Source of the DNA: Candidatus Iainarchaeum sp.
GTDB taxonomy: Archaea > Iainarchaeota > Iainarchaeia > Iainarchaeales > CSSED10-239
Direction of reading: 5' to 3'
DNA length: 64,000 nt
Assembly (NCBI GenBank): GCA_028700115.1
Contig: JAQVTI010000001.1
Span: forward strand, 107,798 to 171,797
Under the pieces are notes generated by a model that did no database searches, was not told where the DNA came from, and was given only the letters and a program-made list of their open reading frames with translations. The position numbers and the translations under genes were made by a program. The number at the start of each line of letters is the position of its first letter. The stretch's first letter is position 1. This document shows positions 46,043 to 62,493 of the stretch, piece by piece.

Positions 46043-46060
46043 AAATTAATCACTCCTTTA

Positions 46061-46366: not shown

Positions 46367-46399
46367 TTTAAATTTTAAATAATAAACTTTTTAAAAAAA

Positions 46400-46825: not shown

Positions 46826-46927
46826 AAATATAATATATGATAAGAAGTATTTATAAAACTAAAGTAAAAAGAAAAAAAAGAAAATAAATCAAGAAAAATT
46901 AAAAAAATAAAAATAAACAAAATAAAA

Positions 46928-47779: not shown

Positions 47780-47856
47780 AAATAATCTTTTTTTAAAATT
47801 TTATTTTAAAAATATATATTTTATAATGTTATTAAAAATAATAAATATCTTTAAAA

Positions 47857-48234: not shown

Positions 48235-48257
48235 ATTAATATATACTTTACAAAATA

Positions 48258-50402
48258 TTAAAAACTATCCTGTTCAATAGGTTTTAATAAACCTATTTTT
48301 GGTTCATAAACATCTCCAATTTTTTTAAGTTTAGAAATTGCTTCTAAAACCTTATCTCTATTATGTCCTTCTTTTTCAGCAAAATCTAAAACTTCCTTTG
48401 TAGGAATTGGATTTCCATTTTCACAAAGATCTTTTATATATCTTAAAACAGTTTTTACAAGATTTCTTTCAGATTGAGATTGACCTGTTGCTAAAATATC
48501 AATATCTATTTTTCCAGTTTCAACATCTAAAGCAGTTTGTTCTAAAGAAGTTTTAAAAATTCTAATTGCTCTTTGAGCATCATCTGGGTCAATTATTTTT
48601 TTTAATTTTATTTTTGCACTAGCTTCAGATAATCTAATTAATCCTTCTAACTGTCTTGGAGTTGCTGCAAAACTTTTTTGTTTTCGCCCAAGATCTCTTA
48701 AACTAATATAATAATCTAAAATAATTTTTGAAGCTTCAGCAGAAAGAATAGGTTTTATGTTCTGTCTTGAATAAGCAACATATTTTTTATAAAGTAAAGG
48801 ATCTATTTCTGGAAGAATATTTCTATTTGCTTCATCATATTCTTCTTTATCTATAGAATTATCATTTGTTGAAAGTTTTTGTGCAAAAGTTTGTGTATTT
48901 AAAATATGCTTTGCAATACTTATATCTTGATCTCTTTTTAAATTATCAGGAATAACAAAATATAAATCAAATCTTGAAATTAAAGAAAAAGGAAGATCTA
49001 TTTGTTCAATTGGATTTTTAAAAGGATCAAATCTATTATATTTAGGATTTGCAGCAGCAAGAATAGAACAATCTGCTTTAAATTTACTATATAATCCAGC
49101 TTTTGAAACAGAAACAGTAGATTGAGCCATTGCTTCATGAAGAGAACTTTTATCTTCAGGACTTATTTTATCAAATTCATCAATTAATGCAATCCCACCA
49201 CTTGCTAAAATAACAGCACCAGCCTTTAAAGTCCAACCACCTTCTCCAAATTCATCTTTTACTGCTGAAACTGTAAGCCCTGCTCCTGAAACTGTTTTTC
49301 CTGCAACATAAACAGATTTTGGTGCTAAAATATTTGTATATTCTAAAAGTTTAGATTTTCCTGTAGATGGATCACCAACTAAAAGAATATGAATATTCCC
49401 TCTTAATTTTTGTTTAGCTGCTTCTTTTTTAACACCACCAAACATTTGAAGAGTAATTGCTTCTTTTACAACTTCATGACCCCAAATATTAGGGGCAATA
49501 GATCTTGCTAAAACATCATAAATATCATTTTTTTTAGAAAGTTCTAAAATTTGTGTTTCTTCTTCAGGATCAATGGTTAATTCATCATATTCTTGATCTA
49601 TTTTTTCAATATGATTTGCAACAATATATTTCCCATAAATATTCATATCTCCTTTTGGAGGTCTTAATTTTAAAACACCAGTAACTAAAATTTTATCTCC
49701 TGCAGAACATTTATTAACAAGATCTTGAGAAAGATAAACATCTATATTACTTGCTTGATCAGAACCTTTTAAACTTTCTAAAGGCTCTTGCATTTGAATT
49801 TTTTGATAATCTATAAAAGCAGATTGCTCTAAATCAATATCAAATTCTCTAGACTTACACTCCCTACATAAAACAGGTTTTGAAAGCTGTTGGGATTTTT
49901 GTTCGATATCAATTGCAGTACCACATTTTCTACAAACAAAATGAGCTGTAGTTAATTTTTCTAATCTTTCAGTAATTAATCTAATTGTTCCTTCTGCAGA
50001 AATTAATTTTGTTAAATGATCAGAACCAATATCTCTTATTGAAACCCTATATTCTTTTGGAAGATTATAAAATCTAATAATAGGTTCAAACTTTTCTTCA
50101 ATTTCAGAATCTAAAATTCCAATATCTATTTTTTTAATTGCAGCATTTGCTGCTTCAATTATAATTTGAGGATTATCTATTAATCTTTCAGAAATATTTA
50201 AATCAAATTCTTCTAATTTTTTATAATCTATATCAAGACTTATTTTTTTAGGATAATTAGAAGCAAGAAACTCAATTTCTCTTTTATATATATCATCAAA
50301 AAATTCTTGCAAAATATCTATATAACTATCAATTGCTAAATCTTTTGGCTTTCCAGTATTTGTATCTTCAAGAGAATCAAATTCTTTATCTAAATCAATC
50401 AT
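48258..50402 (-). CDS. mcm: MCM replicative helicase
   Basis: Zn finger CRKCG...CRECKS. Walker A GDPSTGKS, Walker B IDEFDK, arginine finger SRFDL. No intein. Confidence 0.9.
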   Translation of the reverse strand: MIDLDKEFDSLEDTNTGKPKDLAIDSYIDILQEFFDDIYKREIEFLASNYPKKISLDIDYKKLEEFDLNISERLIDNPQIIIEAANAAIKKIDIGILDSEIEEKFEPIIRFYNLPKEYRVSIRDIGSDHLTKLISAEGTIRLITERLEKLTTAHFVCRKCGTAIDIEQKSQQLSKPVLCRECKSREFDIDLEQSAFIDYQKIQMQEPLESLKGSDQASNIDVYLSQDLVNKCSAGDKILVTGVLKLRPPKGDMNIYGKYIVANHIEKIDQEYDELTIDPEEETQILELSKKNDIYDVLARSIAPNIWGHEVVKEAITLQMFGGVKKEAAKQKLRGNIHILLVGDPSTGKSKLLEYTNILAPKSVYVAGKTVSGAGLTVSAVKDEFGEGGWTLKAGAVILASGGIALIDEFDKISPEDKSSLHEAMAQSTVSVSKAGLYSKFKADCSILAAANPKYNRFDPFKNPIEQIDLPFSLISRFDLYFVIPDNLKRDQDISIAKHILNTQTFAQKLSTNDNSIDKEEYDEANRNILPEIDPLLYKKYVAYSRQNIKPILSAEASKIILDYYISLRDLGRKQKSFAATPRQLEGLIRLSEASAKIKLKKIIDPDDAQRAIRIFKTSLEQTALDVETGKIDIDILATGQSQSERNLVKTVLRYIKDLCENGNPIPTKEVLDFAEKEGHNRDKVLEAISKLKKIGDVYEPKIGLLKPIEQDSF

Positions 50403-50727
50403 TTATAAAAACCTCAAAAATATTATATATAAAATATTTATAAACATAAATAAAGGGTATGTGACCAAAACCTAAATTTACAAAAAATATAAATATATAA
50501 ATTTTATTAAAATTTTCTATATATTACAAATTTTAAAAAAATCCTTAAAAAAACCTATTTTTAAAAATAGGTTTTTATTAAAGAAAGTTTTATAGTTGTA
50601 TAAAAATAAATATTACAAATCTTATATATTATTATTTAGTTTGGAAAAAATAAAAAAAAACATATAAAATAAGGAAATAATACAAGAAGTATAGAGGTAA
50701 AATAAAAAAAAATAAAAAAAATACAAA

Positions 50728-51069
50728 TTAATTTACATAATAATTATATAAATAATTTGCAGCACCTTGACAACTTGCTTGACAAGCTTGCATATTATAA
50801 TTACAACTAGATACTGATGATCCACTATCTATACATATTTCAAAATTATCCTTACAACCATTAATACACCAATTATAAAAAGCACTATTATATGGAGATT
50901 CTTCATCTAAAGAAAATGGATTTGCAATAGATATAGGTTGTGAAATAATATTGTTTGCAGAACCAGATATTGTTAAATCATTTATTAAAAAACCAACAAT
51001 TATTCCAATAACTAAAGCAATAATTACTAAAAGACTTAACTTTAAATTATTTTTCATAAAACTAAACAC
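50728..51069 (-). CDS. small secreted/membrane-anchored Cys-rich protein (10 Cys in 60 aa)
   Basis: N-terminal hydrophobic segment LSLLVIIALVIGIIVGFLI, then NWCINGCKDNFEICIDSGSSVSSCNYNMQACQASCQG. Confidence 0.4.
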   Translation of the reverse strand: MFSFMKNNLKLSLLVIIALVIGIIVGFLINDLTISGSANNIISQPISIANPFSLDEESPYNSAFYNWCINGCKDNFEICIDSGSSVSSCNYNMQACQASCQGAANYLYNYYVN

Positions 51070-51148
51070 CTCATAAACAAATATTTTAAAATATTTAATA
51101 ATATATATTATAAAAGATAATGTTTATAAAACAAATTAATATATAAAA

Positions 51149-52480
51149 CTAAACAAAATCAATAGAATTTGCAAGTAATTCTATTTCTGAAGAAAAACCA
51201 TTAAGTTTAGCTCTTCCTTTAATTTTTATTCTTTTACCTAAAAGATCATCTTCAAGCTTAGAAAAAATATTTTCTTTTTCTTCTTCAGAAAATTCTTTTA
51301 TAAAATCTTCTTTTTTAATATTAAATATTTTTTCAACAACTTCTTTAAAGAAAACAACCTTTAAAATACCAGTACCATCATCTACATCAATAGATGCAAA
51401 AAGATTAACTTCAGGATTATCAACTTCTTTATTACATTTTTCACAAATAAATGATTCATTTATTAATTGTATTTTTTCTTTACAATCAGGACATTTAAAA
51501 TATCTTAATTTATTTCTATTTACAGAAACAATAGTAGCTTCAATTTCATAATTTTTAGAATCTTCTAAAGAAGAAATTGTTGAATTTTCATAACTTTGAG
51601 AAAAAGCATCTATTAATTGCTCTAAAGAAGGAATATTTAAATTATTTTTTGGATTTTTAAAAATTGTAGAATTCCAATTAATATTTATTTCAAAATCATA
51701 TAAACCTTCTCTTACATTTACATCTGTTAATTTTACAATATCTCCTCTTTTATAATCTTTTTCAAAAGTATGTGCTAATTGATCCCAAGCAGTACACTTT
51801 ATAGACTTTATTCCATCAGAAATTTCAAAATTTAAAACAAATCTTTTTTTTTGATTTTTATCTTCAAATTCTCTAATAGGATAAATAGCTATAATTCTTC
51901 CAATAGTTTCAATTAATTTATCAGTTAAATCAATTTCAGAAACTTTTATAAAAATATTTTCAATAGGTTTAATATCAGGAGCATTTTCTGGAAGAATAAT
52001 GCTTCCTCCATATCTTAAAGCAAGTTCTTTATTATCATTATAAGTTGTAACATATGCATCTTTTATTAAAACTAAAGAATTTTTTTCTAAATTTAAAGAA
52101 TCTATTAAATCTACTTTTTCATTAAAAAGATTTAATTTAATTTCACCAGTATCATCTTGTAAAAAAACATTTTGAATTTTCCCAAGAGAACCATCCTTTG
52201 CATTATATGTTTTAAAAGGTGGGATAGATTTTACTCTAGCATATAAACTAACCCCATCTTGAGAAGAAGAAATTTCTGAAATTTTATATATAGAAGAAGT
52301 AGATTTTATATCTAAATCTACATTATATTGCTTTGCAAGCATTATATTTGCACCAACATCAGAAAGTAGACCTTGATATTTATCTTTTATTTTATTTATT
52401 TCTTCTAAAAGCTCTTCATCAGTTTTCTTAGTTTCAACTTTTATTTTTTTAAAAATATCTTCAGCATTATTTAATTGCAT
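51149..52480 (-). CDS. rpa: replication protein A (RPA)-like ssDNA-binding protein with OB folds and C4 Zn ribbon
   Basis: OB-fold-like N-terminal region (ARVKSIPPFKTYNAKDGSLGKIQNVFLQDDTGEIKLNLF). Zn ribbon CPDCKEKI...CEKCNKEV. Confidence 0.6.
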   Translation of the reverse strand: MQLNNAEDIFKKIKVETKKTDEELLEEINKIKDKYQGLLSDVGANIMLAKQYNVDLDIKSTSSIYKISEISSSQDGVSLYARVKSIPPFKTYNAKDGSLGKIQNVFLQDDTGEIKLNLFNEKVDLIDSLNLEKNSLVLIKDAYVTTYNDNKELALRYGGSIILPENAPDIKPIENIFIKVSEIDLTDKLIETIGRIIAIYPIREFEDKNQKKRFVLNFEISDGIKSIKCTAWDQLAHTFEKDYKRGDIVKLTDVNVREGLYDFEININWNSTIFKNPKNNLNIPSLEQLIDAFSQSYENSTISSLEDSKNYEIEATIVSVNRNKLRYFKCPDCKEKIQLINESFICEKCNKEVDNPEVNLFASIDVDDGTGILKVVFFKEVVEKIFNIKKEDFIKEFSEEEKENIFSKLEDDLLGKRIKIKGRAKLNGFSSEIELLANSIDFV

Positions 52481-52710
52481 AATTTAAAACCATTTTTATT
52501 TTTTTAATTTTTTATAAAAATTTTAAAAAAATTATAATATAAATATATATTAATAAAGAAAATATTAATAAAAGGGTAAGAATATAAAATAATACAAAAA
52601 ATAAAACCAATTTAAAAATATTAAAATAAATATAATTATAAATATATTAGACTAAATATATTAAATAAAATATATTTTAGAAAATAAAAATTTATAAAAA
52701 GTGTAAAAAA

Positions 52711-55020
52711 ATGAAGATAGGAAAATATACTGTTGGAAACTACATAGTTACTCAAGAAGGAAATAAAAAAAAATTAGTTTTTGACTGTAGAAACTGTCCA
52801 TATAATACATCAATTGCAGAAGATGCAAGATGTAGATACCATGTTTTAAAAACATTAGAAACAATAGATGCAGATGAAATAATATTAGCAGAAGTATATG
52901 AAAGAAGCTATGATAAAATACAAACAAAATTTTTAAAAGAAATGGTAAATCTTGGGATGGATTTTGAAAATAAAGCTGTTTGGGTTTCAGAACATTTAAA
53001 TATTAATGATATTGATTGCGATCAATGTTACCCACAAAGACATAATAATATTTTAAAATTTGCAAGAGAACTAATCTCATATGACCCAATAGCATCATAT
53101 ATAACTTTATTAAAAGAAATAGAAAACAATAAAACAAGAGAAGAAGACTCAAAAGGAAAAGAATGCGAAAAATGCTTTACTGCAAATATAAATCATTTAT
53201 TAAATTTAAAAAAACAATATGAAAAAACTGAGTTTATTAGAAGAATCAAACCAATTTTAGTAAAAAGCAAAGATCTTTCTGACTTAACAGATATTTATAG
53301 AACCATTTTTGAAGTAGAAATAAAACCATCTTTTATTGGATCTAAAATATCTTTTGAAAATATGGATAAATTAGAACTAATAGACGAATACCAAGTATTA
53401 AACACAAATGTACAAATATTTAAACATCCAGAAAAAATAGAATATATGTATATGATTAACCCCCCAGAGTACACACTTTCTCCAGACCATTATTTTGTAC
53501 TTACAAAAACAAAAGAAACTGTTGCAAACTATGCTCCTGGAACAGTTACTCTTACAACAGGGGATTCAACTAGAAAATACTTTCAAAGAATATATCAAAG
53601 CACAATAACAGATATTGCACGAAAATTTGCAATAAACATAAATGCAGAAGACATTTTTGCACTTTCTGAAATAGTTACAAGATATACAATTGGATATGGA
53701 ATTTTAGAATTACTACTTTCAGACAGACAAGTAACAGATGTTTATCTAGACTCACCACTTGGTTCAAAACCAATCTATTTAGTTCACTCTAAATATGGAC
53801 AATGCCAAACAAACATACAATACCCAGAAAGCGATGCTGAAAGCTTTATTGGAAAAATTAGAGCAATGTCTGGAAGACCATTTGATGATGCACATCCAAT
53901 TTTAGACTTTGATTTACCAGATCTTAACACAAGAATTGCAATTATTGGAAGACCTCTTGCAACTGATGGGATTGCATTTGCATTCAGACTTCATAAAGAC
54001 ACTCCTTGGACTCTACCACAGTTAATAAATGTAAAATCACTTAACTCACTTGCAGCAGGTATGCTTTCATTTTTTATAGATAATAATTCAACTATGCTAA
54101 TTGCAGGATCACGTGGTGCAGGAAAAACTTCTTTAATGACTTCTTTAATGCTTGAGATTCTACAAAACAGTAGAATCATAGTTCAAGAAGACACATTAGA
54201 ACTTCCTGTAATGTACATGAAAGATATTGGGTTTAATGCCCAAAGACTAAAAACAAGATCTGCAATTGGTGGAACAGGAGATCTAGCAACATCTGAAGTT
54301 AAACCAGAAGATGCTCTAAGAACAGCTTTAAGACTTGGTGACTCTGCTTTAATTGTTGGGGAAGTTAGAAGTGTTGAGGCTAAAGTTTTATATGAAGCCA
54401 TGAGAATTGGTGCAGCTGGAAATGTTGTTATGGGAACAATACATGCTGATTCAGCTTATGCAGTTTGGGATAGAGTTGTAAATGATCTAGAAGTTCCAAC
54501 AACTTCTTTTAAGGCAACTGATATTGTAGTTGTTGCAAAGCCTATAAGATTTAAAGGATCTTTAAAAAACCATAGAAGAGTAGTTCAAATCACAGAAGTT
54601 AGAAAGCATTGGAATAATGATCCAGATGCAGAAGGCGGACTTTTAAACTTAATGGAATATGATGCTTCAAAAGATACACTTGTTTTAAATGAAGATGCTC
54701 TAAAAGACTCTGAGATGTTTACAAAGATAAGTAAACTTTCTGGTATGAAGATAGAAGAGATTTGGGAGAACATTAACTTAAGGTCAAAAGAGAAACAGTT
54801 CCAAGTAGATTTTGCAAAAGAAAAAGATGTGATTGAAATTTTAGAGGCAGAACACACTGTTTTTGCACACAACAAGCTTCTTATCATGAAAGAAGAATAT
54901 TTGGAGTATTATAATGATAAGCTAGATTATAATGATTTATACGAAAAATGGAAAAAATGGTATACAGAAAGCTTTGCTCCAAGAGTAATTAAAAGAATAA
55001 AAGATAATAGAATTGAATAA
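52711..55020 (+). CDS. FlaI/VirB11/TadA-family secretion ATPase (type IV pilus/archaellum assembly) with about 250 aa Cys-rich N-terminal extension
   Basis: Walker A GSRGAGKTS. Asp/Glu box IIVQEDTLEL. His box region TIHADSAY. N-terminal CRNCPYN...CRYH, CDQCYPQRH and CEKCF suggest a Zn-binding module. Confidence 0.65.
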   Translation: MKIGKYTVGNYIVTQEGNKKKLVFDCRNCPYNTSIAEDARCRYHVLKTLETIDADEIILAEVYERSYDKIQTKFLKEMVNLGMDFENKAVWVSEHLNINDIDCDQCYPQRHNNILKFARELISYDPIASYITLLKEIENNKTREEDSKGKECEKCFTANINHLLNLKKQYEKTEFIRRIKPILVKSKDLSDLTDIYRTIFEVEIKPSFIGSKISFENMDKLELIDEYQVLNTNVQIFKHPEKIEYMYMINPPEYTLSPDHYFVLTKTKETVANYAPGTVTLTTGDSTRKYFQRIYQSTITDIARKFAININAEDIFALSEIVTRYTIGYGILELLLSDRQVTDVYLDSPLGSKPIYLVHSKYGQCQTNIQYPESDAESFIGKIRAMSGRPFDDAHPILDFDLPDLNTRIAIIGRPLATDGIAFAFRLHKDTPWTLPQLINVKSLNSLAAGMLSFFIDNNSTMLIAGSRGAGKTSLMTSLMLEILQNSRIIVQEDTLELPVMYMKDIGFNAQRLKTRSAIGGTGDLATSEVKPEDALRTALRLGDSALIVGEVRSVEAKVLYEAMRIGAAGNVVMGTIHADSAYAVWDRVVNDLEVPTTSFKATDIVVVAKPIRFKGSLKNHRRVVQITEVRKHWNNDPDAEGGLLNLMEYDASKDTLVLNEDALKDSEMFTKISKLSGMKIEEIWENINLRSKEKQFQVDFAKEKDVIEILEAEHTVFAHNKLLIMKEEYLEYYNDKLDYNDLYEKWKKWYTESFAPRVIKRIKDNRIE

Positions 55021-55021
55021 A

Positions 55022-55222
55022 TTATTCTATTATCTTCCATTGTCCTTTTTTTGTAGAACCAATTCTCTTTAATTTACCTTTTTCTTTTAATTTAGATATA
55101 TTCCACTCAACACCCCTAACAGATAATCCAACTTTTAAAGATAATTCTTTTACAGTAATATTAGGATTTTTCTTAATTAATAAAATTATTTTATCCACAG
55201 TTTCTTCCACAGTCTCTTCCAC
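55022..55222 (-). CDS. small winged-helix DNA-binding protein
   Basis: ITVKELSLKVGLSVRGVEWNISKLKEKGKLKRI HTH/wing. N-terminus encoded by a 12-bp tandem repeat (EETVEETV). Confidence 0.45.
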   Translation of the reverse strand: MEETVEETVDKIILLIKKNPNITVKELSLKVGLSVRGVEWNISKLKEKGKLKRIGSTKKGQWKIIE

Positions 55223-55377
55223 AGTCTCTTCAAAAATTATTTAAAAACAAATAAAATATATATAATTTTCTAAAAGTCAACTAATTAATTAGCAAACTAA
55301 TTAAATAATATAGAATAATTTATAAATATAATAAACAATATTAATATATTATTTAAAAAAACAAAACAAGAGAAAAC

Positions 55378-56004
55378 ATGAAATTATTTAATAGAGTTAG
55401 AAAACCTAAAAGAGAGACACCTCATAAGATAATAGAAAAAACATATAAAATAAATGAACTTGAAGCAGCTTTTACAAAAGAGAAAGGCAAAAACTCAAAA
55501 TTAAAAGAAATAAATGCAGTTAGAAGAAAAGATTCAGGTAAATTTGTTTTAGGAGATATTAAAGATAAATTTTACCACACACATATTCTAGATAGTCTAA
55601 AAGAAAGAAATAAATTAATACCTAGTCCAGAAGACATAGTTACATCTAGTTTACTTAAAAGATATAAGAATGTAAAAAACAATGGTGTTTTTCTAATACA
55701 CAAAGGTAAAGAAATTGGAAAAATACATTTTAGATTAAGTGATAAATTTATTAAAGATATTAGAGAAGGAACAGAGAGAGCAAGTAAGACTAATAAAGAT
55801 ATTAATAAGGTTGATTTTTTTAATGCATTTCTAAAACTAAGAATAAGTAATATTTATTCTTTTAATATTTTAAAAGATAAAATGACTTTAGAAAAACAAG
55901 TTAAGATAATTAATGAACTTAAAAAAGAAGGTATACAAATAAAATATAAAGCAATGCCTGGATATAAGTTTAATGAAAAAACTATGCTTTTTGAAAAAGC
56001 ATAA
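55378..56004 (+). CDS. hypothetical basic protein
   Basis: ORF only. Its last 7 codons lie inside the left copy of a 53-bp direct repeat. Confidence 0.3.
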   Translation: MKLFNRVRKPKRETPHKIIEKTYKINELEAAFTKEKGKNSKLKEINAVRRKDSGKFVLGDIKDKFYHTHILDSLKERNKLIPSPEDIVTSSLLKRYKNVKNNGVFLIHKGKEIGKIHFRLSDKFIKDIREGTERASKTNKDINKVDFFNAFLKLRISNIYSFNILKDKMTLEKQVKIINELKKEGIQIKYKAMPGYKFNEKTMLFEKA

Positions 56005-56028
56005 AACTAATTTTATTTTTATAAAAAA
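55976..56028. repeat. left copy of 53-bp perfect direct repeat (aaaaaactatgctttttgaaaaagcataaaactaattttatttttataaaaaa)
   Basis: Identical to 57485..57537. The pair brackets the AAA-ATPase gene. Confidence 0.9.
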
Positions 56029-57362
56029 CTTTTTGGTTTTTCTAACATAGCTAAAAACATACATACAGGTATAACTAAATTATTATTTAGATTAATATCT
56101 GCAGGTGCAACTAAATTTTTTGAAAGCATAATATATTCATCAACATCTTCTATAAAATTAGGTTTTTTAAATTTATTTCTATATTTAACTTCAATTGCTT
56201 TATTTTTAAAAACAAAATCAATTTCTTTTTGATCTACATTATAATATTTTAATTCTAAATTATAAATATTTTGTAAATGACTACCAACTGTATTTTCTAC
56301 AAGCTTACCTAAAAAAGTATCATTAAATAAAAGAGATCTACTTTCTTCAAAAGAATCTAAATTATTTGAATAGTTTAATAAAGAATGAATAATAAAAGGA
56401 TCTTTAATATAAAATTTCTTTAAAAGATCTCTTGCAGATTCTTTTATTTCAAAAATAATTAATAATTCTTTTAATTCATTTAAATATTTTTTAATAGTAT
56501 CTATAGAATAACCTGTTTTTTCACTAATAGTTGTATATTTTAAAGAACCAGTTAAAGATTCAATTAAAACTTTTAATATTTCAATAGATTTTGTTTTATC
56601 CATTTTTTCAAATATTTTTTGAATAATATCTTCATAATATTTTTCAGAAATTGAATTATTTTTAAAATAAGAGTTTATAGTTTCTGGAAAACCACCTGTT
56701 AATAAATAAATATTAAAATATTTATTAATTTCATCAAAATAAGATTCTATATTTAAAAATTTACTAAGTATATCTTCATTAGATAAATTTAAATTAATTT
56801 CAGACTTAACTAAAAGGTTATATAAACTTAAATTATCAGTTTTAGTTATATTTAAAAGAAATTGCCTAAAAGTTAAAGAAGACATAACTTTTATTTCTTC
56901 AGATCTTCCAATTAATGCTTGTTTACATTCTTCAATTTTTCTAGGATCAGAACCAGTAACTACTAAACAAATATCTTTTAATAAATTAGAATCTTTTAAA
57001 GCTTTTAAAAAGGCACAACTATTTTGTAAAGATTGAATCTCATCAAATAAAATAATTTTAATAGGATATAAATTAATTATTTTTTCCATTTGCCTAAATA
57101 GTTCTTTTTCTTTTAAATTTAATAAAATATCAAAATTAAAATAAATTACTTCCTTTGAATTAGTAGAATAAGCAATTTGTTTTAAATAAATTGTTTTTCC
57201 TACTCTTCTAGGTCCTTTAATTAAATTTATAGTCCCAGGAGTAAGATTTATAGAATCTCTAGTTATAATATATTTATTTTTAGATAAATTATCTATATCT
57301 GGATCTTTTTTTCCTGAAAACCAGGGATTTTGACTTAAAACAACATTCCAATCTAAAGGCAT
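56019..57362 (-). CDS. AAA+ ATPase of the archaeal COG1373 / DUF4143 type
   Basis: Walker A GPRRVGKT, Walker B ILFDEIQ. C-terminal DUF4143-like region. Confidence 0.6.
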   Translation of the reverse strand: MPLDWNVVLSQNPWFSGKKDPDIDNLSKNKYIITRDSINLTPGTINLIKGPRRVGKTIYLKQIAYSTNSKEVIYFNFDILLNLKEKELFRQMEKIINLYPIKIILFDEIQSLQNSCAFLKALKDSNLLKDICLVVTGSDPRKIEECKQALIGRSEEIKVMSSLTFRQFLLNITKTDNLSLYNLLVKSEINLNLSNEDILSKFLNIESYFDEINKYFNIYLLTGGFPETINSYFKNNSISEKYYEDIIQKIFEKMDKTKSIEILKVLIESLTGSLKYTTISEKTGYSIDTIKKYLNELKELLIIFEIKESARDLLKKFYIKDPFIIHSLLNYSNNLDSFEESRSLLFNDTFLGKLVENTVGSHLQNIYNLELKYYNVDQKEIDFVFKNKAIEVKYRNKFKKPNFIEDVDEYIMLSKNLVAPADINLNNNLVIPVCMFLAMLEKPKSFL

Positions 57363-57484
57363 ATATTAATTATACACCTATAAGTTTATAAATTTATCTA
57401 AAAGTCAACTAGTTAACTAGTTGAAATTATCTAAAAGTCAACTAATTAACTAATTAACTAATTAACTAATTAATTAAATAATAA

Positions 57485-57537
57485 AAAAAACTATGCTTTT
57501 TGAAAAAGCATAAAACTAATTTTATTTTTATAAAAAA
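57485..57537. repeat. right copy of 53-bp perfect direct repeat
   Basis: See left copy. Preceded by operator-like motifs at 57397..57475. Confidence 0.9.
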
Positions 57538-57538
57538 A

Positions 57539-58114
57539 TCATACATTAATATAGTCTTTATGAATATACTCTTTTACAAATAATAAAACATCTTTATTTG
57601 TAAATTGATTTATACTCTTTTTATGATCTTCAAAAAACAGTTCATAACAATATCTAAGATATGAAGGATTAAGAGTTTTTACTTGGTTAAAAAATTTAAC
57701 TTTTAACTCTTTAGAAATATCTAATTCTTTTATTTTTTTATCTAATTTATATTTTAAGATATTTCCTTGTCTATCAGATCTATTAACATAGATTTCTGCT
57801 TCACGTTTTTCTATTTGTGCATATTTTAAAAAATGTTCAACAATTTTTATATATTCTTTTTGAGTTAGTTTTTTCATTAACTCTTTTGTAGTCATGTTTT
57901 TTTTATCTCTTAAAAGAATATTATGCATATGAAAAACAATATCAGAATCTGATAAAAATTTATCTTTTTGTTTAATTAGTTCTCTTAGTTTAGGGTCTAC
58001 TACTTTTTGATTTAGTTTCTTTGTAGACCTATTTCTAGTTATTTTAAAACTTTGTCTTTTTTCCTTAAATGTATAAGGTTTATTTGTTTTTGGATTTATT
58101 TTTCTAAAAGGCAT
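57539..58114 (-). CDS. hypothetical basic protein
   Basis: ORF only. Starts 2 nt after the right direct-repeat copy. Confidence 0.3.
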   Translation of the reverse strand: MPFRKINPKTNKPYTFKEKRQSFKITRNRSTKKLNQKVVDPKLRELIKQKDKFLSDSDIVFHMHNILLRDKKNMTTKELMKKLTQKEYIKIVEHFLKYAQIEKREAEIYVNRSDRQGNILKYKLDKKIKELDISKELKVKFFNQVKTLNPSYLRYCYELFFEDHKKSINQFTNKDVLLFVKEYIHKDYINV

Positions 58115-58216
58115 AAATAATTAACTCTTTTATATTATAACAAATATATAAAAGATAAATAAATTTATAAATAGTAATTTTTATTAAAAAAATAAATTTT
58201 TTTAAAGAAAATTCAT

Positions 58217-58960
58217 TTAATTAATTTTATTTAAAATAAACTTACAAATAAGTTTAAAATCTAATCTATATTTTTTTAAAATATAATGATTTGTTGAATT
58301 ATTATACAATTTTATTTTATAATCATCATTTATTATATTATTTAATTTATTAATAACTATAGATTTATCTTTTATTGGAAAATTATTATCTTTTAGTATA
58401 ACATAGATATCATAAATATCTTTACCTTCATCTCTATTTATAAAAGCTTTAATTTTTTGATAAAATAATTCTTCTAAACTATAAACATTAAAATAAGATA
58501 TATCAAAATCAACAAATCCAGGATAAATTATTTTTTTATTAATATCAGGCATATCTTTATTATTTAATCTAAATTCAAGCATAATTTTATCTTTTTGATT
58601 AATCTCATTAATATACTGAATATCAAATCTAATTGTTTTATTCATGATTCTTGGTTTATTTACAATATAAGATTTCAAATATTTTTTTAAAATTAAATAA
58701 ATATCTTCTTTTAAAATATTTATTTCTTTTTTAGAAAAAATATCAAAATCAATATCTTCAGAAAATCTTTTAAATTTATTAAAATAAACTCTATTTAAAG
58801 AAGTTCCTCCTTTTAATATTATATTATCAAATTTATTCTCTAATAATTTAAATATTTTTGAAATTTCTTTATCTTTTATAATATAATTTGTAGATAATCC
58901 AGTATCTAAACAAATTTTTCTAATAAGTTTTATATCCATTAATTTAATACCACCAATCAA
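58217..58960 (-). CDS. abiEii: AbiEii/AbiGii-family nucleotidyltransferase toxin (type IV TA, DUF1814)
   Basis: IILKGGTSLNRVYFNKFKRFSEDIDFDIF matches the LKGGTAL...RFSEDIDF signature. Confidence 0.65.
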   Translation of the reverse strand: MIGGIKLMDIKLIRKICLDTGLSTNYIIKDKEISKIFKLLENKFDNIILKGGTSLNRVYFNKFKRFSEDIDFDIFSKKEINILKEDIYLILKKYLKSYIVNKPRIMNKTIRFDIQYINEINQKDKIMLEFRLNNKDMPDINKKIIYPGFVDFDISYFNVYSLEELFYQKIKAFINRDEGKDIYDIYVILKDNNFPIKDKSIVINKLNNIINDDYKIKLYNNSTNHYILKKYRLDFKLICKFILNKIN

Positions 58961-59732
58961 TTATATTTTTTTCACCTAAATTATCTTTTAGTTTCCATTT
59001 ATCTATATATTTTGATTTTTTATTATTTATATTTAATAAATAAGTATTAGATTTGTCTTGAGATAATAAATATTTTAAAAAATAATTAGGTATTTTTAAA
59101 TTTGTATTTTTAAGTAAAATATCTAAAATATAGCCAGTAATTTGATTTTGTCTTTTACTAGAGTATTTTTTATAAATTAATAATAATTTATTCCAATTTA
59201 TTTTATTTGAACCTAAATATATAGCTTTAGATAAAATAGAATAACTACCTATATATTTAAATTTATTAAAACAATCAAATATAGTTTTTTCTAAAGAAGA
59301 AATATAAATATTATCTATTCTTATAAAATCATTATAAAAATTAGTATTTATATATTTTAGATTATATTCATATAATTTAATATTTTTAGATTTTTTATTA
59401 GTAGAAATATATATGTTGAAAGGATGGTAATCTATTAAACCATAATAAAATAAAGCAGATGAAAAAGAAATATATCCAGGATATAAATTAGTTGCTATTT
59501 CAAAAAGATCATTTATTGAAAAAATATCTTTTTTAATATAATTATTTTTTTTAAGATTTAATAAATACCCTTTATCTTTTAATTGTTTTAATAAAAAATT
59601 AATCTTATAATTAGAATAATCTTTAAAAGCAGATTTTAAATCATTGTTTTTTAATATATTATTCTTTTTTTTAGAATCTATATAGTTATACAAATAATTT
59701 TCATTATTTGTTAATTGGTTATTTTTTTGCAT
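58944..59732 (-). CDS. abiEi: AbiEi-family antitoxin / transcriptional regulator
   Basis: YPGYISFSSALFYYGLIDYHP matches the AbiEi_4 motif YxSxxSALxxHGL. Overlaps the downstream toxin gene by 17 nt. Confidence 0.6.
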   Translation of the reverse strand: MQKNNQLTNNENYLYNYIDSKKKNNILKNNDLKSAFKDYSNYKINFLLKQLKDKGYLLNLKKNNYIKKDIFSINDLFEIATNLYPGYISFSSALFYYGLIDYHPFNIYISTNKKSKNIKLYEYNLKYINTNFYNDFIRIDNIYISSLEKTIFDCFNKFKYIGSYSILSKAIYLGSNKINWNKLLLIYKKYSSKRQNQITGYILDILLKNTNLKIPNYFLKYLLSQDKSNTYLLNINNKKSKYIDKWKLKDNLGEKNIIDWWY

Positions 59733-59937
59733 ATAACATAATTATATTACATAACCTTTAAAAAATTAACCAAAAAATATTTATTTAAAATATATTAAAA
59801 ATAAATAAAATTTTAAGAAAAAGAATAAGTTTTAGATTTTTAAAATTTTTTTAAAAATAAAAAAAAGAAAAGAAAGAAAAGGAAATAAATCCTTTATCTT
59901 TAACGGTTTAGATTTAATCTATTTTATTTTCAAACAT

Positions 59938-62493
59938 TTACATGTTTTCAATAACGTTGATTAATTCTTTAGCAGCCATTGCAGTGTCTTCAGCTGTCAT
60001 TCCAGCAACAACAATATTACCTTCAGCGTTTTGTCCTAATACATAGTCTCCAGAAGCTGTTAACATAGTATCTAATCCTATATTTTGAGCTAATGTGTTA
60101 ACTAAGTGACCACCAACAATGATTTTGTTTCCTGCTGGGTTTTCGTTATCAAGGTATACTAATTTGTTTGTTGCAACATTCCATGTCATTGGAACAATAG
60201 CATCAGTTGCAGCTCCACCAGATAAAGCAACAGCATCTAATGATACAGATACTCCGTCTTCTGTTTGTTGTTCTCCTTCAGCTGTTAAAGTGAATGTTGA
60301 ACCGTTAATTGATGTTGAAGTACTAGCTCCTCCACCAACGAAGATTTGTCCATATAATTTAGTATCAGGAACAATTGCAGTAAACATACCTCCGTCTACT
60401 TCAGCATATGTACCAAATTCTGTATATCCCCAAGTTAAATCATCAGAATCTTCTTGATTTAGTGTGTAAGTTACAGCATCACCAGTTGTGAAAGCTGAAT
60501 TTCCATTTACAACAAGAACTTGATCAACAACAGCTAAATAAGATGAATCATCTGTATCTACTAAATTTCCAGTTCCAGCATCAATATGAGCTACTACTGA
60601 ATCTTGACCATCATCAACAACAAATTCAAACATAGATTTCATATCAGTACCGTCTGTTAAAACACCTGTAGCAGTTTTACCAACATATGTACCATCACTA
60701 GTTGCAGCAACATCTATTTGTGTATATATATTTTTAATAGTCCAATCTTGAGTAGGACTATCAATAGTACCTTCAATAGATCCTGCAGCACCTTCTTTAA
60801 GACCTAATGCAAATTGAGTAATATCATTTGTTCCAGTTGCACCATCTTCGTTAATATATAAACCATAAGCTAATTTTTCAGATTCATTATTATATAATGG
60901 GATTGTTAAATCTGTAAATGCAGCATCTGTGTAAACAAATTTAGAATTATCTGTATTTGTTGTTTCCCAAGTCCAAACATTAGAAGTTTTTGTTAAGTAA
61001 TCTCCATCATCATCTTCTAATTGAACTGTGAAATAACCAATATCTAAAGCATCATTTGCAGCATTAGGAATTCCACCAACATTGGAATCTTCATTACCAT
61101 ATATAAAACTATCATAAGAACCTACATCTGTAGTAGTATTAAAATCCTCATCAGCTGTATGGAATTCAATGTATAATTTCTTATCATCTAATGTTTGCAT
61201 AGTTGTATAGTTTTCACCATCTCCGTAAGTTCCATCTTCTTCTTCATAAAAGAATACTTTGTGATCGTCGTCAGTAGCATCTATATAAGAAATATATCCA
61301 TCTTCAACAATTACTTCTTTTGATGATTCATTAGTTAAACCTAAAAAGTCAATAGAACCTAAATCAAATGGTAAAACAATAGAGTCATCTACTTTTAAAG
61401 CATCTTCATCTTCCCATTGAACATCTTGATCTTCATTAGTAAATACTATTTTTGTAATAGGATCAGAACCTGTAAAACTAACTTTCCATAATTTATCATC
61501 TATATTTGGGAAATCTTCAATAATTTGTCCACTTTCAAGCTCTATACTTGTACTTGTACCTGAAACAACAGTTACTTTTTTATCATAAACTGTATCTATT
61601 TCTACATTTGATTCTAAATATTCGTTGAATACTGTTTCATAATCTGTAAAAACTTCAGAAGCTAAAATTGCACCATTTTGAGAAATACTTAATTCAACAG
61701 AATAATTATTACTAGATTCTAAAATATCTTCAACAGTGATTGTATATCCGTCAACTTCAAAAGAAGCACCTTCTTCATAAGGAGCTGTATTTTTATTTTG
61801 AACTAAAGTTACAATTCCATTAGAATAGTCTTCAAGAGTATATTCATTACCCATTAAATTAAATTTGAAATCAGGACTACCTTCATCATTAGCACCATTA
61901 TTAATTCCAGGATTAAATTCAAGAGTATATGAAATATCCCCTCTATCAAATGATGCTGTTAAATCAGCTACATCTTTATCTGAATCAAAAGCAACTGTAG
62001 GAGTAATAGTAATACTTTCTTGTACATTTATTTCATCAGTATCAAAAATACTATCATCAACATCTACGTCATAATCTCCTAAAACAGAATAATCTCTGTC
62101 ATCAAGAGTTTCTGTAACACTAGTAGATCCTAATTCCCAATCATCTGTTAACAAACCGTCTCCAGAAATTGTAGATGTTGATTCAGCACCAGCTGTAACA
62201 GTTACACTTTCTAATGCAGCTCCAGCGATTGCGTCACCTGATGTGTAAGCTTTCTTTCCAATAGCAGCAGCTATGTTTCCAGCCCATACAACATCAACTG
62301 GTTGAGCCATAGATCCAACGATTACATTGTAAGCTGGTCCTGTAGCACCAAATAATTGATCTTTTGTTAAGTTGTCTATTCCAGTGTATGTGTCATCTGC
62401 CATGTTAGCAGCAGCAACAGCACCTGCAAATAAAGCAGAAACTGCAAAAACACCTGCACCAGCAACTATTTTCTTCATATTTATATTCTTCAT
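59938..62493 (-). CDS. putative S-layer / major cell-surface protein
   Basis: Sec signal MKKIVAGAGVFAVSALFAGAVAAA. 851 aa, Thr/Asp/Gly/Val-rich with almost no Lys, unlike the K/N/I-rich rest of the window. Local GC clearly higher. Long AT-rich promoter region. Confidence 0.5.
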   Translation of the reverse strand: MKNINMKKIVAGAGVFAVSALFAGAVAAANMADDTYTGIDNLTKDQLFGATGPAYNVIVGSMAQPVDVVWAGNIAAAIGKKAYTSGDAIAGAALESVTVTAGAESTSTISGDGLLTDDWELGSTSVTETLDDRDYSVLGDYDVDVDDSIFDTDEINVQESITITPTVAFDSDKDVADLTASFDRGDISYTLEFNPGINNGANDEGSPDFKFNLMGNEYTLEDYSNGIVTLVQNKNTAPYEEGASFEVDGYTITVEDILESSNNYSVELSISQNGAILASEVFTDYETVFNEYLESNVEIDTVYDKKVTVVSGTSTSIELESGQIIEDFPNIDDKLWKVSFTGSDPITKIVFTNEDQDVQWEDEDALKVDDSIVLPFDLGSIDFLGLTNESSKEVIVEDGYISYIDATDDDHKVFFYEEEDGTYGDGENYTTMQTLDDKKLYIEFHTADEDFNTTTDVGSYDSFIYGNEDSNVGGIPNAANDALDIGYFTVQLEDDDGDYLTKTSNVWTWETTNTDNSKFVYTDAAFTDLTIPLYNNESEKLAYGLYINEDGATGTNDITQFALGLKEGAAGSIEGTIDSPTQDWTIKNIYTQIDVAATSDGTYVGKTATGVLTDGTDMKSMFEFVVDDGQDSVVAHIDAGTGNLVDTDDSSYLAVVDQVLVVNGNSAFTTGDAVTYTLNQEDSDDLTWGYTEFGTYAEVDGGMFTAIVPDTKLYGQIFVGGGASTSTSINGSTFTLTAEGEQQTEDGVSVSLDAVALSGGAATDAIVPMTWNVATNKLVYLDNENPAGNKIIVGGHLVNTLAQNIGLDTMLTASGDYVLGQNAEGNIVVAGMTAEDTAMAAKELINVIENM

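Follow-up and report, generated by a model that had tools for sequence, protein, structure and literature searches.

Perfect direct repeats around a candidate defence ATPase gene of Iainarchaeia may be a displaced gene 3′ end at a hot spot of gene exchange

Rhs arrays and the T6SS effector-immunity arrays of Vibrio cholerae form a variable region beside a conserved anchor gene, keep orphan 3′ fragments of that gene between cassettes, have no dedicated recombinase and diverge as a mosaic that stops sharply at non-homologous sequence; homology-facilitated illegitimate recombination and 3′-end displacement have been proposed for these arrays (PMC5361080). The locus described here, two identical 53-mers around an ATPase gene in a 64-kb stretch of DNA (hereafter the window) from Candidatus Iainarchaeum (GC ~22%), resembles them in the anchor gene, the orphan fragments, the mosaic divergence and the apparent lack of a dedicated recombinase, and may do so in the sharp end; its orphan fragments come from gene A in the window, from the T2SSE gene in L010 and from the S-layer gene in L052 (numbers of this form denote the sequences compared with the window). 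It differs in that the host is archaeal (DPANN), candidate defence ATPases and pairs of toxin and antitoxin take the place of toxin tips as cargo, and the fragment in the window is tiny (7-11 codons and a terminator). Furthermore, orphan fragments in Rhs and T6SS arrays normally decay, whereas here the fragment stays perfectly identical to the live copy, and the mechanism that we propose is read from sequence alone.

Islands inserted by tyrosine integrases at the ends of tRNA or protein genes are likewise bracketed by direct repeats, restore the 3′ end of their target and leave both products intact. Unlike these islands, the present locus showed no integrase among the window ORFs checked, no core shared across lineages and no empty site, its cargo is a syntenic resident, and its repeat is whatever the neighbouring gene supplies. 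Integron arrays, including those of Archaea (PMC9668308), also combine single-gene cassettes and repeated hairpin-capable elements with a fixed chromosomal platform, and the boundary elements of Vibrio super-integrons share the homogeneity within a genome that is seen here. However, neither IntI nor an attI platform was found among the window ORFs checked, and the 53-mer differs from attC in having no R″/R′ core (GTTRRRY) on either strand and a stem that is perfect, not bulged. In further contrast to integrons, the ATPase cassette has its own TATA box and putative operator, orientations are mixed (gene A and the ATPase gene are convergent) and fragments of genes make up many of the boundary repeats. 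Core-genome defence hot spots and islands with PDC-S01 (PMC12988326) similarly hold variable PDC-S01-type ATPases, AbiE and Fic between two core genes, but the cassettes of Iainarchaeia are delimited by lineage-specific direct repeats. Finally, in defence islands under repressors such as RptR (PMC12255303), the operators are palindromic; as here, a palindrome adjoins a defence gene's core promoter, and the same site recurs at a small HTH gene of the islet. The promoter at our locus is instead archaeal (TATA/BRE), and the putative operator is conserved while the small wHTH gene is not.

The islet comprises the following genes and repeats, given in window coordinates:

52711..55020, + strand, FlaI/T2SSE-type secretion ATPase gene (Pfam T2SSE), the conserved left border of the variable islet
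55022..55222, − strand, wHTH gene, 66 aa (Pfam HTH_24, E=1.8e-10), found in the window lineage only
55378..56004, + strand, gene A, 208 aa, of a small uncharacterised family
55976..56028, no strand, left 53-mer, spanning the end of gene A (7 codons and stop), a hairpin, T-runs on either strand, and the end of the ATPase gene (last codons and stop)
56019..57362, − strand, ATPase-nuclease gene with AAA_14, wHTH and DUF4143 (PD-(D/E)XK) domains (COG1373 / PADLOC PDC-S01)
57485..57537, no strand, right 53-mer, a non-coding duplicate of the gene-A 3′ end and predicted terminator
57539..58114, − strand, gene B, 191 aa, predicted to be all-helical
58217..59732, − strand, AbiEii/AbiEi toxin-antitoxin pair (Pfam and PADLOC matches), within the same variable islet
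59938..62493, − strand, S-layer-like protein gene, the conserved right border of the islet (S_layer_C annotated in relatives)

The protein encoded between the repeats has an N-terminal AAA_14 P-loop domain (PF13173, E=7e-20), whose GPRRVGKT motif is invariant, and a C-terminal DUF4143 domain (PF13635, E=1e-17), a family assigned to PD-(D/E)XK (PMC3424549); the nuclease catalytic residues E356, D382, E391 and K393 are invariant in 22/22 orthologues. It is matched by seven PADLOC PDC-S01 HMMs (best 8.4e-24), which makes it a candidate antiviral defence protein of the PDC-S01 family. Genes of the PDC-S01 (COG1373) family are reported to rank with the most frequent defence candidates of prokaryotes, to be enriched in Archaea and to await experimental validation (PMC12988326). 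Gene A had no match in Pfam, PHROG or PADLOC, and the homologues recovered were just 2 close and 11 remote ones. Relative to L008, the only close relative, gene B is highly diverged in its N-terminal two-thirds and conserved in its C-terminal 45 residues, and a Foldseek search with its AF2 model (pLDDT 67) returned no PDB match; the AbiE pair is an insertion of ~1.67 kb relative to the same sequence. The 66-aa wHTH gene features three tandem 12-nt units at its N-terminus.

The preliminary description of this DNA had reported an identical 53-mer at these two positions, with the final 7 codons of gene A and its stop in the left copy and a COG1373 AAA ATPase alone in the interval. All of this is borne out by the sequence: the copies have 0 mismatches, and the interval contains the ATPase ORF with its upstream region and nothing else. 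The left copy also takes in the stop and final 2-3 codons of the ATPase gene, which had been overlooked. This is the longest non-tandem exact direct repeat of the window and its sole long dispersed exact one; a search of the 64-kb window for further copies found none with up to 3 mismatches, and no shuffled sequence contained a match. Within the 53-mer, ATGCTTTTT-G-AAAAAGCAT forms a hairpin with a perfect 9-bp stem (RNA fold −8 kcal/mol, z = −2.8). The left copy is a junction of convergent genes and is likely to be a bidirectional terminator. The right copy is located between the gene-B stop (57539) and the ATPase promoter region. The C-terminal motif MPGYKFN..FEK is conserved in the gene-A family and partly encoded within the left repeat; because the duplicated codons encode this conserved C-terminus (..FEK), the right copy is taken to derive from gene A and not the reverse.

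Comparison with L008, a 15-kb SPAdes contig from another sample and a diverged lineage, showed the same order of T2SSE, gene A, ATPase, gene B and S-layer genes, with a perfect 58-nt repeat pair at the sites orthologous to the window 53-mers (right copy at 12113-12170). A four-copy alignment revealed a 6-nt indel that is common to both L008 copies and missing from both window copies. The boundaries also differ, with 11 gene-A codons in L008 versus 7 in the window, where the repeat reaches 13 nt further right. The shared arrangement, the indel in both L008 copies and the shifted boundaries therefore argue against a single fresh insertion scar, and the copies appear to be homogenised or re-made within each genome. 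The same arrangement with divergent repeats in related genomes had been named as evidence against a recent insertion; L008 does have the arrangement, but its repeats are perfect within the genome and differ only between genomes, which points to ongoing or recurrent recombination and not to an old, dead scar. Independent recent events could also produce this concerted pattern, so it does not by itself prove gene conversion. A search of relatives for an empty site (gene A, one repeat, gene B), as had been suggested, found none: gene A occurs only in the source genome and L008, both of which are occupied, and is lacking in the more distant genomes compared. No circular junction was seen.

Divergence between the window and L008 is mosaic. 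The ATPase gene has a dS of 0.17 against a background of 0.52-0.71 (~0.6 pooled; Fisher p = 2e-16), while dS is 0.75 in the N-terminal half and 0.35 in the C-terminal half of T2SSE, 0.41 and then 0.26 along gene A, and 0.56-0.81 in gene B. The low-divergence tract stops abruptly at the ATPase promoter, where the alignment of the two genomes collapses near 57375-57395, and divergence is greatest (56% identity) in the promoter region between the ATPase start and the right repeat. Such a mosaic with a sharp promoter end would be compatible with import of a tract that had its anchor in T2SSE or gene A and a non-homologous far end. As the tract is not bounded by the repeats and the promoter is most diverged, a simple model in which the cassette and one repeat move as a unit fails, and import requires an additional rearrangement of the operator region. 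The low dS of the ATPase gene could partly result from constraint and not from recent exchange, yet the equally conserved T2SSE and MCM genes show high dS.

To place the islet in a wider context, its neighbourhood was compared across Iainarchaeia. In all sampled relatives whose flanks were long enough, the orthologue of the ATPase (51-61% identity) lies between the S-layer gene and the FlaI-like gene; the T2SSE gene adjoins the orthologue in L008, L010, L013, L014, L017, L018, L019, L050, L052 and L054, and the S-layer gene is kept beside it in relatives. Between these borders the content varies and includes other AAA ATPases, AbiE and Fic. This comparison shows a conserved hot spot in Iainarchaeia at which genes for ATPases, AbiE and Fic come, go and replace one another; no such S-layer/FlaI-like hot spot was found in the literature searched.

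Bracketing repeats recur at this site in several lineages. A repeat of ~550 nt (369 exact) in L010 consists of the 3′ end of a pilin-like gene, an intergenic spacer and the last 93 T2SSE codons; the duplicated T2SSE fragment has 99% amino-acid identity, and the right-hand pilin fragment is merely 67% identical, as if derived from a donor. In L052, 330 nt of the S-layer 3′ end are present twice, around an AAA_14 gene, and L013 has 40 nt of the T2SSE 3′ end around a second ATPase gene. Three ATPase genes in L053 are separated by a 125-190-nt module present four times, which by eye is the S-layer 3′ end with a promoter, an assignment that tblastn did not confirm. Hairpin elements of 39-49 nt lie behind successive genes in L019, L044, L045, L047 and L050, and no bracketing repeats were found in L017, L018 (Forterrea) or L069. 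The repeats of L014 are shared promoter modules and not gene ends, so more than one process may operate. The bracketing repeats of L010, L013, L019, L047, L052 and L053 are unrelated in sequence, which indicates that there is no conserved att core. Across seven long loci, 10 of the 14 direct-repeat pairs scoring at least 40 bits fall in the islet with 600 nt on each side, which makes up 27% of bases (p ~6e-4).

Repeats made of neighbouring gene ends, their identity within and difference between genomes, and the mosaic dS together point to host homologous recombination. We favour, with a probability of roughly 55%, a reading in which the 53-mers represent the displaced 3′ end of gene A with its predicted bidirectional terminator, produced by homology-anchored recombination at a gene-swapping hot spot. 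Orphan 3′ fragments beyond an inserted module are found for gene A (window and L008), for T2SSE (93 codons in L010) and for the S-layer gene (L052). Populations of Diapherotrites are inferred to undergo homologous recombination (PMC5905446), and RadA and Mre11-like genes are present in the window. In the mechanism that we infer, DNA from a sibling strain, linear or circular, would recombine through a shared gene end, and its other side would be joined illegitimately or by a single Campbell-type crossover, so that the old 3′ end is displaced or duplicated. The end of gene A, with the T-rich hairpin terminator that would serve both convergent genes, would thus have gained a second copy beyond a resident single-gene cassette, the PDC-S01-type AAA+/wHTH/PD-(D/E)XK ATPase-nuclease with its own, putatively operator-controlled promoter. 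Gene conversion between the copies, or repeated loss and re-acquisition of the cassette by recombination at the repeats, may keep them identical. As a side function, the right copy may terminate gene-B transcription just ahead of the ATPase promoter. The preliminary description had offered either an att-like duplication from insertion of a small cassette or a recombination scar; the second part agrees with this reading, while an att-like insertion is at odds with the resident, syntenic ATPase, the occupied site in L008, the lack of an integrase among the window ORFs checked and the lack of a conserved core.

The best surviving alternative, which we nevertheless consider unlikely, involves no mobility. 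Templated repair or an ectopic conversion tract would have placed a copy of the gene-A terminator ahead of the ATPase promoter, and the copy would have been kept as a shield from gene-B read-through, with selection and occasional gene conversion accounting for identity. The repeat, with its hairpin and T-runs on both strands, does sit precisely where gene A, the ATPase gene and gene B end, the upstream repeats of L010 and L008 likewise part the ATPase promoter from the preceding gene, and the ATPase is stably resident. Selection for termination, however, requires neither identity at 53-58 of 53-58 positions nor a shared 6-nt indel, and the duplications of 93 T2SSE codons in L010 and of 330 nt of the S-layer gene in L052 are left unexplained, as is the threefold lower dS of the ATPase. 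The hairpin is also weak (−8 kcal/mol), and T-runs suffice for termination in Archaea, which counts against a terminator shield.

It is more doubtful still that the 53-mers are attL and attR of a small non-autonomous integrative cassette, with a recombinase encoded elsewhere that recognises the hairpin-containing core and maintains identity by repeated excision and integration. Perfect repeats that restore the 3′ ends of target and cargo genes and leave both excision products intact would be expected of such a cassette, as would copies that are identical within each genome and different between genomes, an ATPase dS below that of its flanks and hairpin-bearing boundary elements after successive genes (L019, L045, L047, L050). 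Yet neither integrase nor transposase was found in the bracket or among 20 mid-size window ORFs examined, all of which are housekeeping genes, and the ATPase is syntenic, not scattered, in every sampled relative with enough flanks. The repeats of other lineages are unrelated and often plain gene fragments of 330-550 nt without a conserved core, the 53-mer core has no match in GTDB representative genomes or IMG/VR, no empty site was found, and within the bracket divergence peaks in the promoter region. A further reading, to which we likewise give little credence, treats the islet as an integrase-independent, integron-like platform where single-gene defence cassettes (PDC-S01-type ATPase-nucleases and their relatives) would actively enter and leave through short boundary repeats maintained as identical copies; the ATPase-nuclease or a host factor might catalyse this at hairpin junctions, and the 53-mers would be functional recombination sites, not passive scars.

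Self-mobilisation of the ATPase-nuclease is very improbable. Widely staggered nicks by its PD-(D/E)XK domain at convergent-gene junctions would, on repair, produce long target-site duplications of variable length (28-550 nt), and the repeats would be transposition footprints. The invariant catalytic residues, the variable-length repeats of local target sequence around AAA_14-type genes in several lineages and the edges of the window repeat, which lie in A-runs, are compatible with this, but the cassette has neither terminal inverted repeats nor conserved ends, the gene occurs at a single conserved locus, several lineages lack the flanking duplication, and the L014 repeats are shared promoter modules, not target duplications. 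We know of no transposon family that makes duplications this long.

Independent contigs at 100% identity cover 53865-57421, 55999-57473 and 57508-58767, and the join at 57474-57507 is provided by the window contig alone (one assembly), together with the parallel arrangement of L008. Short-read contigs end at 56005, 57421, 57470/57473 and 57508, the unitigs and the NCBI contig break within the distal promoter module O2 (57430..57478), and the NCBI MAG contig terminates in a foreign GC-rich tail of 93 nt. An assembly artefact, in which two strain variants or loci sharing the 53-mer were threaded into one path, could account for these breaks, the foreign tail and the singly supported join, but it is hardly credible, given that a true repeat would itself cause short-read contigs to break there, that the independent L008 contig runs through both repeats in the same arrangement, that unitig L007 connects gene B with the final 30 nt of the repeat and L002 connects gene A, the repeat and the ATPase gene, that reads span a 53-nt repeat shorter than themselves, and that three independent assemblies of the L010 locus have analogous structures.

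The region upstream of the ATPase gene, and its counterpart at the wHTH gene, contain the following elements:

55269..55292, − strand, module in the wHTH-gene promoter, with TCTAAAAGTCAACT followed by the 12-bp palindrome CTAATTAATTAG (55281-55292), beside an AT-rich TATA-like stretch
57385..57392, − strand, probable TATA box of the ATPase gene, TTTATAAA, 23-30 nt upstream of the ATG, assigned from its sequence
57397..57424, − strand, putative proximal operator O1, a motif copy and the 20-bp perfect palindrome TCAACTAGTTAACTAGTTGA, abutting the BRE/TATA region
57430..57478, − strand, distal module O2, a second motif copy then (AACTAATT)x4

Three exact copies of TCTAAAAGTCAACT are present in the window, at 55269, 57397 and 57430 (the last previously placed at 57429), confined to these two promoters, and a search of the 64 kb found no further match even at 2 mismatches. 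Matches to a 14-mer at 2 mismatches are not rare (30/100 shuffles yield at least 3), and the three exact copies are the unusual part. The palindrome, described earlier as 18 bp, extends to 20 bp (57405-57424) and consists of two AACTAGTT units, the only two in the window, side by side; the 12-bp palindrome was found as described. A reported 4x taattaac tandem does comprise four 8-nt units (57440-57471), but the unit is better read as AACTAATT, a G-to-A, slipped variant of AACTAGTT. The wHTH promoter module shares a 20-nt exact match with 57430-57449 and is a paralogue of the distal ATPase module, which is not present in L008.

The position of the TATA box is conserved in L008, L010 and other orthologous promoters, and in 10 orthologous ATPase promoter sequences a distance of 40-49 nt separates the end of the palindrome from the ATG. 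When eight promoters were aligned, the dyad axis, upstream of the TATA box, kept a constant register, with 91% of cells complementary and 7 of 10 dyad pairs changed on both sides, a result matched by 0/500 shuffles (slid controls, 5-42%). This maintenance of the palindrome through compensatory changes supports the earlier proposal of a shared operator for a dimeric regulator, here a putative one. The single L008 sequence supplies several of the compensatory changes.

The same proposal had named the wHTH gene at 55022 as the possible regulator. This gene is absent from the corresponding position in L008, where the gap between T2SSE and gene A is 30 nt, and was not detected in the other loci compared, where the operator is kept; it is lineage-specific, and a role as the operator's regulator is therefore not established. 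Bearing the same promoter module, it is more likely to be co-regulated than to be a conserved regulator. The first candidate for the operator-binding protein is the wHTH of the ATPase itself (residues ~260-301), the other being the 66-aa wHTH protein. TCTAAAAGTCAACT may represent one half of the palindromic operator fused to the BRE/TATA region. The operator module would be ancestral to the ATPase promoter and, in the window lineage, would have been duplicated to give the distal copy and the promoter of the newly acquired wHTH gene.

The locus appears to be a conserved DPANN chromosomal site that exchanges PDC-S01-type genes, AbiE and Fic, and it informs how defence genes may turn over in tiny genomes without obvious mobile-element machinery. 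Its covarying palindrome, as a putative operator, offers a handle on the control of PDC-S01-type ATPase genes, and the perfect repeats predict that defence genes would be frequently lost or amplified within populations.

The 53-mer AAAAAACTATGCTTTTTGAAAAAGCATAAAACTAATTTTATTTTTATAAAAAA occurs in exactly two copies (55976-56028 and 57485-57537) and is the longest exact non-tandem repeat of the very AT-rich (GC ∼22%) 64-kb window, within which no third copy was found at up to three mismatches. All elements listed in the preliminary description were present, with coordinates off by no more than 1-2 nt. Elsewhere in the window (40655-40790), an 11-nt unit (AATTATTATAA) is tandemly repeated, and exact sub-repeats here reach 45 nt. 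The source is Candidatus Iainarchaeum sp. (DPANN, Diapherotrites), and NCBI MAG proteins under this organism name match the gene A and ATPase proteins with full identity. The genes around the repeats are as follows:

52711-55020, plus strand, FlaI/T2SSE-type ATPase
55022-55222, minus strand, 66-aa winged-helix protein (wHTH)
55378-56004, plus strand, gene A, without family match
56019-57362, minus strand, AAA_14 plus DUF4143 ATPase
57539-58114, minus strand, gene B, without family match
58217-59732, minus strand, AbiEii/AbiEi
59938-62493, minus strand, S-layer-like protein

The left 53-mer covers the 3' ends of two convergent genes, with the final 7 codons and stop codon of gene A on the plus strand and the stop and terminal codons of the ATPase on the minus strand; the right 53-mer ends 1 base short of the gene B stop. 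The sequence can form a hairpin (9-bp stem, -8 kcal/mol, z = -2.8) with T-runs on both strands, and is without integron-type core sites. This anatomy makes it plausible that the right copy has a secondary role in terminating transcription from gene B or insulating the ATPase promoter from it. The core of the 53-mer had no match in IMG/VR or in the GTDB representative genomes, to which the source genome evidently does not belong, and Rfam searches across 54500-60500 gave no match.

The ATPase matches seven PADLOC PDC-S01 models, and its residues E356, D382, E391 and K393 are invariant across 22 orthologues. DUF4143/COG1373 belongs to the PD-(D/E)XK nuclease superfamily (PMC3424549), and PDC-S01, an ATPase fused to PD-(D/E)XK, has been described as an abundant, archaea-enriched and experimentally unvalidated defence candidate (PMC12988326). 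Gene A belongs to a small family (12 representatives in 1.8 billion), and a remote homologue lies in an unrelated context; its AF2 model is poor (pLDDT 47), and neither Pfam nor a profile search of PDB sequences gave any indication of function. In alignment A5 of this family, the pattern E..H-x-H..P-S-x-x-D is invariant and the C-terminus, MPGYKFN..FEK, is conserved. We take the former to be reminiscent of a JAB/MPN+ metalloprotease, a candidate likeness without a Pfam or PDB sequence match. Gene B was considered as a split or N-terminal integrase fragment, which was rejected following the lack of any Pfam or PHROG match, an all-helical AF2 model (pLDDT 67) and no PDB match with Foldseek. Similarity between genes A and B is absent, so they were also rejected as paralogues. 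The 5' end of the wHTH gene (55186-55224) consists of three tandem 12-nt units (gaagagactgtg, coding EETV), and gene callers differ on its start (66 vs 62 aa).

Among 5.8 billion proteins, the only close match to gene A (81% identity) is encoded on contig L008 (ENA ERZ18242344) of a close relative. In this contig, T2SSE is followed by gene A, the ATPase, gene B' and the S-layer gene, the wHTH gene and AbiE are both missing, and a distinct perfect 58-nt direct repeat pair (10586-10643 and 12113-12170) occupies positions orthologous to those of the window. Compared with the window, the L008 repeat reaches 11 nt deeper into gene A and ends 13 nt sooner on the side away from it, and both of its copies have a 6-nt insertion right after the gene A stop. 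Background dS between the two genomes is 0.52-0.71 (T2SSE, MCM, RPA, SPP, eIF2B), a level at which copies of a 55-nt, largely non-coding segment should show several differences if independent since before the split. The copies are identical within each of the two genomes. Either they have been homogenised, by gene conversion or inter-repeat recombination, or each lineage has recently formed the duplication anew; both readings imply a recurrent process and not a single old scar. The duplicated gene A codons encode ...K-T-M-L-F-E-K-A, part of the C-terminal motif kept in remote family members; therefore, the right copy is a displaced gene A end, not the reverse. Relative to L008, the AbiE pair is a ∼1.67-kb insertion (58183-59853), at the flanks of which no clear repeat was found. 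Older scars from the T2SSE or S-layer 3' ends were not found inside the window islet.

Divergence between the window and L008 is mosaic.

Divergence of the window from L008 by region
T2SSE N-terminal half: dS 0.71-0.78
T2SSE C-terminal half: dS 0.35
Gene A: nucleotide identity 87.6%; dS 0.41, then 0.26
ATPase gene: nucleotide identity 95.0%; dS 0.13-0.23
ATPase upstream region (57363-57484): nucleotide identity 56%
Gene B: nucleotide identity 66.7%; dS 0.56-0.81
S-layer C-terminus: dS 0.14

For the ATPase, the count is 39/255 synonymous sites versus a background of 595/1452 (Fisher p = 2e-16). The dS pattern therefore indicates that the ATPase, and to a lesser extent the segment to its left, has a later common ancestor than the two genomes. 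The tract of high similarity breaks off sharply within the ATPase promoter (near 57375-57395), short of the right repeat, a position that fits an import anchored by homology at the T2SSE/gene A side with a non-homologous far end, and fits less well a unit bounded by both repeats. A simple cassette moving as a unit with one repeat is likewise weakened, because divergence peaks in the promoter segment, which lies inside the bracket. In gene B (57539-58114 vs L008 12181-12726), the C-terminal 45 residues are near-identical although dS is high (0.8), and the N-terminal two-thirds have a dN of 0.45, so the C-terminal helices alone are under strong purifying selection, with the rest evolving very fast. 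Separately, the 87 nt 3' of the S-layer stop (window 59854-59940 vs L008 12886-12972) are 100% identical in genomes that are otherwise ∼86% identical; together with the low C-terminal dS, this suggests a strongly constrained 3' element or a second recent recombination tract.

The wider history of the locus was followed using ATPase orthologues (51-61% identity) from GTDB genomes and JGI metagenomes. Wherever the flanking sequence was sufficient, the ATPase was located in the interval bounded by the S-layer gene and the convergent T2SSE gene, and is therefore an old resident of the site. The islet also carries, in various combinations, AAA_14, DUF234 and ATPase_2 genes, AbiE pairs, Fic and pilin-like genes; the interval is a variable defence islet flanked by two conserved genes. 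Genes A and B and the wHTH gene are restricted to the window/L008 clade (the wHTH gene being missing in L008). The AbiE pair is missing at the window's position in L008, and AbiE is found in the islets of L014 and L050. The nearest outgroup loci (L037 and L069, short contigs with a 61% identical ATPase) lacked genes A and B, and no bracketing repeat was found there.

Bracketing repeats of other sequence were found in several of these loci. In L010 (GCA_964591795.1), the ATPase and its promoter are flanked by two copies of a ∼550-nt segment (369 nt exact) in which a pilin-like gene 3' end is joined through the intergenic spacer to the final 93 codons of T2SSE. Of the T2SSE fragments, that on the left shares 99% identity with the live gene. 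The pilin fragment on the right (7604-7750) comprises 48 in-frame codons of a pilin-like gene (class III signal), with only 67% protein identity to the live copy 2.3 kb away, and the adjoining 369 nt are identical; this fragment looks donor-derived, as if from another strain. In L052, an AAA_14 gene is flanked on both sides by a 330-nt S-layer 3' end, and in L013 a second ATPase gene is similarly flanked by two copies of a 40-nt T2SSE 3' end. In L053, three ATPase genes are separated by a 125-190-nt module present in four copies; by eye it resembles an S-layer 3' end plus promoter, which was undetected by tblastn with the window S-layer protein. In L019, L044 and L045, and in L047 and L050, one gene after another is followed by a hairpin element of 39-49 nt, and the same 49-81-nt promoter module is present at each gene in L014. 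Bracketing repeats were not found in L017, L018 (Forterrea, complete genome) or L069. Seven long loci contain 14 direct-repeat pairs of at least 40 bits, 10 of which fall inside the islet ±600 nt, which represents 27% of bases (binomial p ∼6e-4, with pairs that are not fully independent). As a separate observation, L018 (Candidatus Forterrea multitransposorum CP045477.1) has two tandem 29-nt units (TAAAAACCGGTCAATAGACTAGCCGGTTA) at 5793-5854, each with dyad symmetry, ∼150 nt upstream of the orthologous ATPase gene.

The boundary repeats have no core common to the lineages, and several are plain gene fragments. Homology-anchored recombination is the mechanism that best fits these data. This could take the form of a circular piece entering by a Campbell-type single crossover, or of homology-facilitated illegitimate recombination in which the old 3' end is displaced, a process put forward for Rhs loci and T6SS effector-immunity arrays (PMC5361080). 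For Diapherotrites populations, a major role of homologous recombination has been inferred (PMC5905446). Unequal recombination between perfect repeats 1.5 kb apart would allow loss or amplification of the ATPase, and the identity of the copies may be upheld by re-acquisition from siblings or by gene conversion. Deletion between the repeats would leave gene A, one 53-mer and gene B (...AATGAAAAAACTATGC...TATAAAAAAATCATACATT), and a circle or tandem product would join 57484, the 53-mer and 56029. The 53-mer pair is best read as a recombination-made duplication located at a cassette boundary, as the preliminary description had allowed, but its reading as the att sites of a mobile cassette is not supported. 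No integrase or transposase was found, either in the bracket, which contains the ATPase gene only, or among 20 further window ORFs, which are housekeeping genes; window ORFs include a [FeFe]-hydrogenase large-subunit-like protein, RadA and an Mre11-like phosphoesterase (21275-22138, 22163-23311, 26193-27401).

An assembly artefact was also considered. Short-read contigs end at the repeat edges, the palindrome and the 8-mer array, and NCBI contig JAQUYT010000014.1, which corresponds to window 45378-57470, exits inside the (AACTAATT)n array into 93 nt of GC-rich, foreign-looking sequence (∼45% GC; L001 12094-12186). This tail has an ORF start, MSDQRYNLRGVSASKEDVHNAI, that we presume to be purM/AIR-synthase-like, and is probably a chimeric MAG join; gene B is truncated at a contig end in the NCBI annotation. 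Such breaks are an expected effect of real repeats, perhaps with copy-number variation of the 8-mer array, and an artefact is unlikely because the independent L008 contig holds the whole structure. Integration targeted to a tRNA is excluded, as there is no tRNA near the locus.

The operator-like motifs of the preliminary description were confirmed. Of the motifs TCTAAAAGTCAACT and AACTAGTT, the former has three exact copies (55269, 57397 and 57430), the palindrome is 20 bp long (57405-57424) and the 8-nt array is (AACTAATT)x4. On the ATPase strand, an upstream alignment of the window, L008 and L010 reads TTTC, palindrome, (A)CTTTTAGA, TATA, ∼25 nt, ATG. The modules span 57397-57424 (proximal, O1), 57430-57478 (distal, O2) and 55269-55292 (wHTH promoter); ACTAGT is the operator core, and AGTCAATGAATTGACT is the L008 variant. 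In 10 orthologous promoter sequences, the palindrome ends 40-49 nt from the ATG, mostly with ACTAGT or CTAG cores and outer arms of TCAA/TTGA or TTAA/TTAA. The dyad axis falls at one fixed column in an alignment of 8 of the 10, where 91% of cells are complementary (5-42% for slid controls) and both-side changes occur in 7/10 pairs, with several double changes from L008 alone; no shuffle attains this. By sequence, the palindromes behave as a predicted operator, and their position upstream of the TATA box is most naturally explained by a DNA operator for a dimeric protein. A terminator is a minor alternative: the palindrome is terminator-like on the minus strand in a bacterial-type scan, but the sigma-70 and intrinsic-terminator scan is designed for bacteria and was excluded from the evidence.

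The promoter-proximal half of this operator, together with the BRE-side spacer, makes up TCTAAAAGTCAACT. The second copy of this motif (57430) and the (AACTAATT)4 array represent a duplication confined to this lineage and missing in L008. At 55269, the third copy combines with CTAATTAATTAG and a TATA-like stretch into the promoter of the wHTH gene, which has therefore taken up an ATPase-type promoter module and is probably co-regulated with the ATPase. The nearby wHTH protein had been proposed as the regulator, but its absence from L008 bars it as the conserved regulator of this operator. The first candidate binder is instead the internal wHTH of the ATPase, whose residues 260-301 give weak matches to HTH_Mga, HTH_36 and HTH_24. 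The 66-aa protein was rejected as a homologue of this domain (no significant similarity, E=0.45).

By type, the locus is a defence hot spot carrying probable 3'-end displacement scars, as known from bacteria. From the literature searched, the apparently new aspects are the DPANN setting, short repeats that are identical within a genome, and the recurrence of repeats around PDC-S01-type genes at one conserved locus.
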